Shown here piece after piece: positions 41,737 through 44,325 of a stretch of DNA of 64,000 nt. The notes beneath the pieces were generated by a model. That model saw only the letters and a list, made by a program, of their open reading frames with translations, was not told the DNA's origin and did not search any database. This stretch comes from a virus. Taxonomy: Duplodnaviria; Caudoviricetes. A program made the position numbers and the translations under genes. Where the stretch lies: the IMG/VR virus record IMGVR_UViG_3300009037_000003, positions 64,001 to 128,000 of that record; one strand, given 5' to 3'. How positions within the stretch are numbered: the stretch's first letter is position 1; each line of letters opens with the position of its first letter.

Positions 41737-41745
41737 ATTATACAC
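41737..41745 (-). promoter_or_regulatory. Class I (late) promoter motif GTGTATAAT
   Basis: Overlaps the RNA ligase stop codon. Confidence 0.65.
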
Positions 41746-42790
41746 AAACGTTGTTATCAGGACGAATAATCTTCATTATCAAATCGTCAAGTCTATCAGC
41801 GGCATTGTCAAAAAGAAGGAATAAGATGGCAGGATGCTTAGTCTTACTCGCCAATCTAGCAAAATCAGCACGACAACCAAGGTTCATGTTCACTAATCTG
41901 CCATAATCAGCTAGTGCCTGTTCCATGACAGATGTATATGCAGTTTCGAGAGATGATGAAATTGCCGAAAATAATCCTTGATACTCTGGGTCTATCTGCG
42001 AAGCTACGTCCGATAGTACCTTGCCATCCTTCATGTTGTTCCAAATAGCCAGAGGGGTAAGGCCGTTCAGTAGACGGTGTCGACGCATATAGTCTTCTAG
42101 TTTGAATTTAACCCGTAAACCGTTATCAAACCGAATCACATAACCTTCTTCTGTCGTGCCTCTGCCTGTCTTAATGTTTCCCTTGATGTATCCGAGCCAT
42201 GTTTTATCATAGGTTTTTACTAGACTGAAATGATATCTACTTGCCAGCTCTGACAAATACTCCCAGGAACACTCCTCTCTGGTGAATCTATCATAAGCGG
42301 CAAGTAAAATCAAATCTGTGCAACCTGCGTAATCAACAACAATTTTCGTAGCCGGACAGACGATTTCGAATAACAGGGTAAGATTTTCTGGCAAACCTTC
42401 CAGATTATATCGTTCTAGGAAATCTGTTGCCCACTTAGCCACAGCATTATCAAAAGAACCCCTGGTGGCAATACAGAATTTGCCATTATAGCGATACAAA
42501 ATCCCTAGCCATCCATCTACTTTTTCATAAATTCTGAAACCATCTTTCCAGGGCAAATTACGATCCATCGTATCGTTGCGCTGGTTGACATTAAAAAACT
42601 TGGGGAACGGCTGAGCGACAACTTCACCCGTTTTTCTGTTCAGGATAATGCCTCTCGTGTTCGAAGTAATATCGTCCCACAATTTGCAGGTATCGAGATA
42701 GTTGTAGATACGCAGATCGCCCATGTCCTGATGTCGCAATAGCTTTCTGGCGACATAATCATCTCTTATTGTTACGTGGTCATAATTCAT
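41738..42790 (-). CDS. T4 Rnl1-family RNA ligase
   Basis: RGII...PFPKFFN, motif I EKVDG, ATRGSF, LLFEI, motif IV EGYVI, motif V RVKFK. Confidence 0.88.
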   Translation of the reverse strand: MNYDHVTIRDDYVARKLLRHQDMGDLRIYNYLDTCKLWDDITSNTRGIILNRKTGEVVAQPFPKFFNVNQRNDTMDRNLPWKDGFRIYEKVDGWLGILYRYNGKFCIATRGSFDNAVAKWATDFLERYNLEGLPENLTLLFEIVCPATKIVVDYAGCTDLILLAAYDRFTREECSWEYLSELASRYHFSLVKTYDKTWLGYIKGNIKTGRGTTEEGYVIRFDNGLRVKFKLEDYMRRHRLLNGLTPLAIWNNMKDGKVLSDVASQIDPEYQGLFSAISSSLETAYTSVMEQALADYGRLVNMNLGCRADFARLASKTKHPAILFLLFDNAADRLDDLIMKIIRPDNNVCV

Positions 42791-42994: not shown

Positions 42995-43138
42995 TTACAT
43001 ATTGTCGTACATCAATTCCAGACAGACGTCCCAATCGTTTTCACACGCAGTAATATCGTACCCCCCGACATTCTCTAGCAATGTGCATCCGCTCAGAATT
43101 ATACATACAGCTACAAGCCATAGTCTCTTATCCCGCAT
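42995..43138 (-). CDS. Small lipoprotein (47 aa), absent from the ORF track
   Basis: MRDKRLWLVAVCIILSG|C: basic n-region, hydrophobic h-region, LSGC lipobox; AAAGGA Shine-Dalgarno; fills the gap between neighbours. Confidence 0.7.
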   Translation of the reverse strand: MRDKRLWLVAVCIILSGCTLLENVGGYDITACENDWDVCLELMYDNM

Positions 43139-43325
43139 TGTTTTTTCCTTTTTTCTTAAGATGCCTCGGTTTCTTCATTGGAGGGAACATCTGATAGATT
43201 TCTGACGCAGATAATTTGTCCAATTCGGATAGCCATGATCTTTCAACTGCTTCCGTCCAAACGTTCGGCGAATTCAAATATGATAATACTTCATGGTCTA
43301 TTGGCTGCTGCTTCTTGATTCTCAT
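43128..43325 (-). CDS. Hypothetical protein
   Basis: AAGGAG Shine-Dalgarno; 65 aa; basic C-terminus. Confidence 0.6.
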   Translation of the reverse strand: MRIKKQQPIDHEVLSYLNSPNVWTEAVERSWLSELDKLSASEIYQMFPPMKKPRHLKKKGKNNAG

Positions 43326-43353
43326 TTCGTTACTCCTTTAGGTCATTTTCGAC

Positions 43354-43490
43354 TGGCGACAGGCGGATTCGAACCGACCACCCCATGTTTTCCCTCTTTG
43401 GTCCTAGTAGATACGAGGACGGACTTACGGGGATCAAACCGAATGATTGCTCTCCAGAGCAGCGCCGCCTAACTATGGCGCTTTGTCGCC
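43354..43490 (-). ncRNA. Non-canonical tRNA-like RNA (137 nt)
   Basis: 7-bp acceptor GGCGACA/UGUCGCC plus A discriminator, D-like arm with GG, GGUUCGAAUCC T loop; three internal hairpins instead of one anticodon arm. Confidence 0.75.
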
Positions 43491-43787
43491 TCAGAATGAC
43501 AAATAGCATATCCACCACAAGGATAGCATGACAGTAAAAGTTATGCTGAATGAATTTGCGAATTTTGCCAACCACGTTCCACGTCTTTTGGTTACCGCAA
43601 AGAAAATAGCATAGCATGAGATACAGGTAATAGCGATTTTGAAAACCACTAACCCATAAAGACCATAACTACGCCATATATTATCGGCTATCGGATTAAG
43701 TTCTACGAAGTATGGATTAATGGCATCGCAGTGAATCGTTGCCAGAAGATCTATAATTGATATTAATAGTACCGAAATATAAGCCAT
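43491..43787 (-). CDS. Small three-TM membrane protein (DUF5658-like)
   Basis: IDLLAT...ELNP.A...G...LVVFK pattern. Confidence 0.6.
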   Translation of the reverse strand: MAYISVLLISIIDLLATIHCDAINPYFVELNPIADNIWRSYGLYGLVVFKIAITCISCYAIFFAVTKRRGTWLAKFANSFSITFTVMLSLWWICYLSF

Positions 43788-43940: not shown

Positions 43941-44222
43941 TTATATTTTGCAACAACGTAGATATTCTTTCCAAATTGCCGCACGGAAAGACTTGTCGAA
44001 CTTTTTGATTGCTCTTGTAAGCGACTTCTTTCTGCCCTCGGCCTTGCAGAAGTTATCATCAGGATGACAATTGGCTTCGGCTACGCTGATAATCTTATCT
44101 CGTCGATATCCATTCGAGTCATCGTCTGGCCTCATTTGATACACAGTCGCTACTGTACGGCGGTCTGTTTCGTAGTGAAATGAAATAGAGGAAATTTGCC
44201 CGTTGTGTTTAACCAATATCAT
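43941..44222 (-). CDS. Hypothetical phage protein
   Basis: GGAG Shine-Dalgarno; A.CHPDDNFCK..GRK.SL.RA motif. Confidence 0.65.
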   Translation of the reverse strand: MILVKHNGQISSISFHYETDRRTVATVYQMRPDDDSNGYRRDKIISVAEANCHPDDNFCKAEGRKKSLTRAIKKFDKSFRAAIWKEYLRCCKI

Positions 44223-44257
44223 TTTATTGCTCCAAAAATCATATTATCTACCATCCT

Positions 44258-44286: not shown

Positions 44287-44325
44287 AAAAAAAACAAGGA
44301 TGGAGAGTCGAAACTCTCCATCCTA
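44287..44325 (-). terminator. Intrinsic terminator of the major tail gene
   Basis: AGGATGGAGAGT-TTCG-ACTCTCCATCCT, then TG and T8. Confidence 0.9.

Follow-up and report, generated by a model that had tools for sequence, protein, structure and literature searches.

A pseudoknotted non-coding RNA on a tRNA frame defines a small, patchily distributed family in a clade of ~165-kb phages

On balance, the 137-nt element described here appears to be a gene that selection maintains, with a stable non-coding RNA on a tRNA frame as its product. This RNA belongs to a family found in one clade of ~165-kb environmental phages; it is probably processed by the host and would offer a pseudoknot and a GGACC loop as its working surface. 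The RNA constitutes a new family within a known general kind, the phage tRNA-like stable RNAs. Phage tRNA clusters have long been known to contain stable RNAs other than tRNAs, the species 1 and species 2 RNAs of T4 being the classic cases, for which the T4 record gives no label beyond small stable RNA. A literature search found no description of the 137-nt RNA family, and it is in no catalogue searched; a 2023 catalogue of ~8,500 candidate structured RNAs from IMG/VR, which entered this comparison through its text, mentions tRNA-like candidates.

The analysis was conducted on a 64,000-nt stretch of DNA (the window), corresponding to bases 64001-128000 of a 139,974-base IMG/VR virus record with a CheckV completeness of 84%. 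Four ordinary tRNA genes are present in the record, all of them far upstream, and there are none in the window. RNA position n corresponds to window coordinate 43491-n, and the gene and its setting comprise the following features.

43354-43490, minus strand: whole 137-nt tRNA-framed RNA gene, scoring 62.4 bits with a covariance model (R2) built without the window sequence
43491-43787, minus strand: upstream ORF for a 98-aa membrane protein, family F2, with weak DUF5658 matches in relatives
43128-43325, minus strand: downstream 65-aa ORF, family F5, with a ribosome-binding site and a start 28 nt past the RNA
41738-42790, minus strand: T4 Rnl1-type RNA ligase (PF09511, 7e-17; phrog_562, 1.6e-51), 564 nt downstream of the RNA
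44221-44250, minus strand: promoter-like site, a consensus match only, after the terminator of the gene for a 371-aa structural protein

As a first-pass annotation of this DNA had reported, the RNA starts directly past a stop codon, in that the TGA of the 98-aa ORF abuts the gene and the RNA begins at the very next base. The 65-aa ORF is followed by two further small ORFs and then by the RNA ligase, and no terminator was found between the RNA, the downstream ORFs and the neighbouring genes. The promoter-like site is a possible start of the transcription unit that bears the RNA. After the structural gene (window 44297-44324) there is a perfect 12-bp hairpin, which is followed by a T run on the minus strand and by a weaker one on the plus strand; from its sequence, it looks like a strong terminator that would work in both directions. 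The flanking small ORFs yielded no functional clue in Pfam and PHROG, and TROVE/Ro (PF05731), the CCA-enzyme family (PolyA_pol) and SmpB were absent from the 84%-complete record.

Two further observations concern gene calling in this record. A 95-aa ORF (window 43330-43617, minus strand) spans the entire RNA gene in another frame, overlaps the membrane-protein ORF and has no family match; it is most likely spurious, and a gene caller could choose it and thereby mask the RNA. Outside the window, 27 nt after a tRNA-Lys gene, lies a 74-nt tRNA-like gene missed by ARAGORN (G000:C1:15590-15663, plus strand), with a perfect 7-bp acceptor stem, a good T arm and a 5-bp stem carrying the loop CUUCUAA (anticodon UCU). 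It is without a normal D arm, has a 19-nt segment after the anticodon arm and may be a tRNA-Arg with a rewired D arm; a canonical tRNA-Arg(UCU) is also encoded in the record that carries it.

The RNA was not recognised by existing models. ARAGORN made no call in the RNA stretch of the window, and Rfam 15 returned no match at gathering scores and none at E<=10 on a 351-nt stretch of the window. With an intron allowed and thresholds lowered, ARAGORN produced only a forced ‘tRNA-Asp(atc)’ model, in which the stems are mismatched and an intron of 39 nt has to be assumed; this model was rejected. The minimum-free-energy fold reached -53.1 kcal/mol (z = -3.0), but the T arm is broken in that fold; a cloverleaf-like fold of the RNA has an energy of -44.8 kcal/mol.

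Relatives were retrieved by way of the 371-aa structural protein, for which over 2,800 homologues exist, the majority on phage contigs of 160-180 kb that derive from sediments, wetlands and soils. Single-protein scans with this protein and with the Rnl1 ligase yielded no loci and an alignment-based scan was needed; an alignment of the structural-protein homologues retrieved 65 related viral loci. A simple search for T arms enclosed in a terminal stem of 7 bp gave candidates of 118-148 nt starting with GGCGA, and a single-sequence covariance model, R1, confirmed these candidates and added more. The covariance model R2 was then made from four relatives only, the window element being left out of its building; its match to the window element had an E-value of ~1e-13, and it found further members too. 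Neither blastn nor nhmmer matched the element to the first relatives, because the sequence alone is too diverged, and no match was obtained with blastn of the 4-kb neighbourhood against the phage collection or with the exact 26-nt T-arm/acceptor pattern in viral contigs. A motif pattern of D-loop, GGACC and T-loop matched 60 stretches in viral contigs, the members among them being only the four already known, and at least 120 stretches and 80 loci in metagenome contigs, with one new member (L168) among the matches listed. Four more contigs reached via structural-protein homologues lacked the element.

A total of 10 distinct full-length members (135-171 nt) was assembled, consisting of the window element and nine positional orthologues in related ~165-kb phages, namely L020, L168, L023, L018, L013, L012, L014 (identical to L015), L019 and L025. 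There is a single copy per record, and R2 matches occurred in 9 of 50 related records, or 6 of the 12 complete ones, both counts including G031, a 25.6-bit match that was set aside as a non-member. The weak R2 match L263 is 105 nt long, scored 25.6 bits and does not resemble a member. At L032:12575-12692, a 118-nt variant occupies the same syntenic slot. Its acceptor, D and T arms are retained around a different interior, which has an 8-bp long arm and no GGACC, and the variant is not matched by R2; the inner module thus seems exchangeable on a constant frame. Rfam gave no match at the element in seven relatives at E<=1, and R2 applied to 156 Bacteroidota genomes (5 + 151), with few candidates scored per genome, returned only matches at the level of class II tRNA-Ser. 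The checks that the first-pass annotation had proposed with ARAGORN and Rfam gave no match for the RNA or for seven relatives. The family is small, with 10 full-length members and one short variant in one phage clade, and is patchy even among close relatives, as is usual for an accessory gene.

A further locus, L387 (CP070695.1), is labelled as a Candidatus Heimdallarchaeota MAG. Its phage structural block, which includes a 77%-identical copy of the 371-aa protein, adjoins ordinary cellular genes in a 4.9-Mb record; the probable reason is either chimeric assembly or mis-binning of a phage fragment.

Alignment of the members resolved the window element into the following parts, listed from the 5' end of the RNA.

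43484-43490, minus strand: acceptor stem, 5' strand GGCGACA, pairing with 43355-43361 (7/7 pairs)
43462-43481, minus strand: D arm with a 5-bp stem, all five pairs covarying, and a 10-nt loop with GUUAGG (equivalents of G18/G19)
43449-43460, minus strand: hairpin H, GCUC-UGGA-GAGC, at the anticodon-arm position; four pairs, 100% paired, three changed on both sides
43439-43441, minus strand: pseudoknot strand i, CGG (GGYGG in relatives), pairing with strand j at 43420-43422
43427-43432, minus strand: long-arm strand k, CCCCGU, pairing with strand l at 43381-43386 beside the T arm; all k/l pairs covary
43392-43419, minus strand: hairpin X, stem UCCUC/GAGGG with an 18-nt loop; 4-5 bp in 10/10 members, with two to four pair types per position
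43400-43404, minus strand: GGACC in the loop of hairpin X, invariant in 10/10 full-length members
43362-43378, minus strand: T arm, GUCGG-UUCGAAU-CCGCC, in which a single U-C mismatch occurs; across the family, 4/5 T-stem pairs covary
43354-43361, minus strand: acceptor stem, 3' strand UGUCGCC, and discriminator A, followed by GUC and not CCA

To assess these helices, each of the 10 sequences was cut into 28 segments by coordinates and the pairs were tabulated. All seven helices (A, the acceptor; D; H; i/j; k/l; X; and T) were present in every sequence, with two to four pair types per position, and six of the seven acceptor positions were paired in all 10 sequences, with compensatory changes present. 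A count of six helices on the model-based alignment A12, which leaves out hairpin X, found 95.6% of cells paired relative to 76.7% after shuffling, and 22 of the 30 pairs had changed on both sides. The A12 covariation score was 0.68 as against 0.28 when shuffled, a value matched in 0 of 500 shuffles, and only 34-46% of cells were paired when the partners were slid. Since A12 aligns X inconsistently, the evidence for this helix is that of the segment table, in which its stem takes the forms UCCUC/GAGGG, CCCC/GGGG, UUCCC/GGGGA, UGCC/GGCA, CUCCG/CGGGG, GUCC/GGAC, GCCCC/GGGGC and GUUC/GAAC.

The strands follow the order i, k, j, X, l, so that i/j and k/l cross and form an H-type pseudoknot, whose linkers are A-rich and whose third loop holds hairpin X and an A-rich linker. 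The variable region is enlarged to about 70-100 nt. The i/j helix has 5 bp in the nine relatives (GGYGG/CCRCC), with a middle pair that swaps from U-A to C-G, whereas in the window only 3 bp (CGG/CCG) are possible. Helix k/l has 4-6 bp and ends zero to two nt, usually one, before the T stem. Hairpin H has a loop of 4-5 nt in all members (UGGA, AGGA or AGGUA; 4 nt in the window), the D-loop carries GUUAGG or GUUGGG in 9/10 members, and the T loop is reduced to 6 nt in the sub-group of L014, L019 and L025. Its T-stem mismatch and 3-bp i/j helix make the window copy the most divergent member. Two further ideas were dropped: a reading of the GGACC loop as an anticodon-like NGG-A-C, as U33 is present in only 7/10 members and no 7-nt loop closes, and a loop-loop pairing of hairpin H with the GGACC loop or the j flank, which was inconsistent across members.

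Much of the frame had been recognised in the first-pass annotation, and the window sequence agrees with it on the 7-bp acceptor and discriminator A, on the 5-bp D stem GCGCC/GGCGC (the loop of which contains GG), on the absence of CCA after the discriminator, on the absence of a G3-U70 pair (the pair being C3-G70) and on the lack of a canonical anticodon arm with a 5-bp stem and 7-nt loop. Of the T arm that it called intact, the loop UUCGAAU stands, but the stem is interrupted by either a U-C mismatch or a bulged U, where relatives mostly have five clean pairs. The hairpin GCUC-UGGA-GAGC and the helix CCCCGU/AUGGGG were both confirmed by covariation across the family, the former across 10 members. 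In contrast, two of the proposed hairpins, AUCA/UGAU and GUCCU/AGGAC, have no counterpart in relatives, and covariation supports helix X and the i/j pseudoknot. The suggested examination of homologue covariation found covarying helices and not the unconstrained decay of an ordinary tRNA, and the overall description as a constrained mimic of the tRNA elbow has held, with seven helices that covary across 10 sequences.

The genomic position of the element is also conserved. The order in the family is structural protein, DUF5658-like membrane protein, phosphoribosyltransferase, Rnl2-type RNA ligase, DUF6899, tRNA(s) and element, and the small ORFs F1, F12, F5, F11 and F9 lie 3' of the element. In relatives the local order is F7 (DUF6899)-tRNA(s)-element-F1-F5-F9, while in the window it is F4-F1-F2-element-F5-F9; the fixed slot of the family, after the RNA-ligase/DUF6899 block and before the F1/F5/F9 small ORFs, is thus also found in the window. 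A local rearrangement in the window has, on the evidence of gene order, put the membrane-protein gene directly upstream of the element. In five of the nine orthologues, the element closes a tRNA array and begins 2-5 nt past the preceding tRNA gene. That gene is tRNA-Glu in L020 and L168, with a gap of 2 nt, and tRNA-Met in L013, L023 and L014, with a gap of 2-5 nt. The gap between tRNA and element equals that between tRNAs in the same arrays. In the close relatives without the element, L011 and L016, the tRNA is followed directly by F1, and the element therefore behaves as an optional last member of the tRNA array. The F1, F5 and F7 proteins are also present in relatives without the element. 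The island of the element in relatives further holds genes for an Rnl2-type ligase, a phosphoribosyltransferase, and macro-domain and Panacea-domain proteins.

Several other features of these islands were observed. The ligase differs, in that an Rnl1-type gene (41738-42790) lies downstream of the small ORFs here, as opposed to an Rnl2/PHA02142-type gene upstream of the tRNA array in relatives; this indicates an exchange of both ligase type and ligase position inside one island. L019 (15772-15909) and L025 (15939-16082) carry, in the interval from the last tRNA to the element, a second conserved structured RNA of ~140 nt, for which Rfam gave no match in either locus; its two copies can be aligned, and the differences in their hairpins are compensatory (for example, GAGCGAGC...GCUCGC vs GAGAGAAUCG...CGAUUCUC). 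The tRNA array of L021 includes an odd 93-nt ‘tRNA-Ala(cgc)’ (L021:14529-14621). Phage tmRNAs with tags ending in MAA are encoded at L011:10724-11069, L021:11796-12146 and L023:11553-11896, and the tmRNAs of relatives sit between the membrane-protein gene and the phosphoribosyltransferase gene.

In environmental libraries, the stretch occurred with hardly any change in DNA runs of freshwater-sediment, soil and wetland origin. Two wetland metatranscriptomes contain contigs that span 43294-43488 and 43265-43408, these being contigs that carry no information on ends, strand or level, and one metatranscriptome contig has a G-to-A change at RNA position 63 that turns the k/l pair G63-U106 into A-U. 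The contigs lend weak support to expression, as the neighbouring genes are covered too and DNA carry-over is possible.

The RNA is unable to decode, since what remains of the anticodon arm is a hairpin of 4 bp and a loop of 4-5 nt. The acceptor/T-arm/elbow module of a tRNA is what RNase P, the 3' trimming enzymes and the CCA-adding enzyme recognise. Because this module is intact, we infer that the RNA is released and finished by the tRNA-processing enzymes of the host. Its place as the last array unit, with tRNA-like spacing, in five relatives makes processing by RNase P and the CCA enzyme plausible. The RNA would be co-transcribed with tRNAs or mRNA, which in the window would mean the upstream membrane-protein gene, the downstream small ORFs and the Rnl1 ligase. 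RNase P would cut its 5' end, and trimming and CCA addition would follow as for a tRNA. The tRNA frame would then mainly provide processing and stability, and the pseudoknot domain with GGACC in its hairpin loop may be the working surface that binds a protein or an RNA.

For the role of the RNA, a tRNA-centred conflict between phage and host is the preferred guess, of rather low probability, because the island combines tRNAs and RNA ligases with a phosphoribosyltransferase and, in relatives, with macro- and Panacea-domain genes. We tentatively propose, from context, that the RNA is a tRNA mimic which titrates a host factor acting on tRNAs, for example a tRNA-targeting defence enzyme or toxin. 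A phage effector working by tRNA mimicry, in which the RNA is excised by the host and its frame and GGACC loop capture and neutralise a host factor that attacks or senses tRNAs, is a possibility that we hold with considerable doubt, with targets such as a defence nuclease, a toxin modifying tRNA ends, or a translation or stress sensor.

Alternatively, the gene could be a cis-acting ‘punctuation mark’ at which RNase P splits a polycistronic transcript, the freed RNA being without a role of its own. Such a mark would suit an RNA that starts right after a stop codon, with the next ORF 28 nt on (and within about 30 nt in relatives too) and no terminator, but it would need the acceptor/T-arm module only, leaving the invariant GGACC loop and the ~70-nt covarying pseudoknot unexplained, and the ordinary tRNA just upstream in relatives could already do the job; we regard it as unlikely. 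The RNA might instead be charged without decoding by a synthetase that ignores the anticodon, and then donate or sequester the amino acid or EF-Tu. SerRS and LeuRS ignore the anticodon with long-armed class II tRNAs, and the intact 7-bp acceptor, the elbow and the long k/l helix one nt before the T stem, which is the class II variable-arm site, are all in keeping with charging. The discriminator base is, however, a main identity mark for most synthetases, and here it is A in seven members and G in three and differs even between the near-identical L020 and L168, making conserved aminoacylation unlikely; G3-U70 is lacking, and beyond G1-C72 and C3-G70 there are no conserved acceptor identity pairs. 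The charging explanation is accordingly rated as quite improbable.

The remaining explanations are weaker. Some relatives encode full tmRNAs in the same region, and one paper cites a phage tmRNA without a CDS, from mycobacteriophage DS6A, that inhibits host tmRNA (PMC11915505), raising the idea of a tmRNA-like molecule, devoid of a tag frame, which would disturb ribosome rescue as reported for DS6A. Against this, pair 3-70 is C3-G70 in the window and eight members and U3-G70 in L019, never G3-U70; a true D stem, absent in tmRNA, is present; no tmRNA model matched (ARAGORN -m, Rfam); and there is no conserved tag frame, stop codons falling in differing frames relative to GGACC. L023 moreover holds both a tmRNA and the element, and the record of the window has no SmpB, all of which leaves this reading highly improbable. 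A Y-RNA-like partner of RNA repair, which would link substrates to a Ro-type protein or to the RNA ligase encoded nearby, is very unlikely. RNA ligase genes are indeed nearby here and in relatives, and Ro with a tRNA-like RNA forms a repair platform in some jumbo phages (PMC7824862), but the record holds no TROVE/Ro gene, YrlA (RF02553) has no match at the element, the ends form an acceptor stem as opposed to the Ro-binding stem of YrlA-type Y RNAs, and ligase genes also occur in relatives without the element. Least credible, to the point of being close to negligible, are the decay of a tRNA gene, a tRNA precursor with an intron, and a fold that arose by chance. No tRNA finder calls the gene, ARAGORN with lowered thresholds forces a poor intron model, and the T stem has a mismatch here; yet ten orthologues keep seven helices by compensatory changes, and the RNA is not a relic, because its helices covary. 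The first-pass annotation had offered a precursor with removable inserts as one option, which is not supported: no inner deletion yields a 7-nt anticodon loop, and the supposed inserts, with the invariant GGACC motif and the pseudoknot, are the best-conserved part. No kind of intron other than group I is known from the tRNA genes of bacteria and phages, and the element is far too short for one of these.

If the preferred reading, a mimic that engages a host tRNA-directed factor, is correct, RNA mimics would join the repertoire of phage counter-defence, and an effector of this type would be an RNA-based counter-defence of a kind not yet described. The family also offers a comparative handle on non-tRNA stable RNAs, through its supported structure, its division into frame and module and its natural presence/absence variants. 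Standard tRNA and Rfam annotation misses such genes.

The RNA was finally compared with known systems. Among pseudoknotted self-cleaving ribozymes and riboswitches (pistol, HDV-like, guanidine-III and others), Rfam gave no match in the window at E<=10 or in seven relatives at E<=1; the strand order resembles that of HDV-like ribozymes, but the 137-nt RNA, as read from the segment table, is without the P3 hairpin. YrlA-type Y RNAs (RF02553) are likewise non-coding, have a tRNA-like T/D elbow and lie near RNA-repair genes, but their topology is permuted, the ends of the Y RNA being the Ro-binding stem. The tRNA-like domain of tmRNA shares an anticodon-less tRNA mimicry and pseudoknots, and tmRNAs exist in the same phage clade, whereas the 137-nt RNA has a true D stem and neither G3-U70 nor a tag frame. 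The likeness to class II tRNAs (Leu, Ser, Tyr; RF00005) extends to the 7-bp acceptor, the D arm with GG, the T arm and a helix one nt before the T stem; the family, however, has no 5-bp stem, 7-nt loop or anticodon, and its variable region is 70-100 nt long and pseudoknotted, in contrast to the 3-7-bp hairpin of class II tRNAs. With respect to the features of a canonical tRNA, the 137-nt RNA has the 7-bp acceptor with unpaired discriminator and the elbow (GG in the D loop, UUCRANY in the T loop), but has no anticodon arm (U33, anticodon, purine 37) and is not recognised by ARAGORN or RF00005. All the features of its own family, that is the acceptor, GUUAGG D arm, H, pseudoknot, X with GGACC and T arm, are found in the window copy, with i/j reduced.

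The closest known analogue is the species 1 RNA of T4 (rnaC), which is 139 nt long and annotated in NC_000866 only as a small stable RNA. The likeness is architectural only, as R2 scored rnaC at 10.7 bits, below the ordinary tRNAs of T4, and no sequence or profile homology was detectable; rnaC also differs in its imperfect terminal stem and in having no GUUAGG-type D arm. No Rfam model for such phage tRNA-like stable RNAs matches either RNA. Both are nonetheless phage-encoded RNAs of about 140 nt at the end of a tRNA gene array, with a tRNA-type T arm (GGGUUCGAAUCCC in T4), pairing between the two ends of the molecule and several hairpins in its interior, and both lack an anticodon arm.
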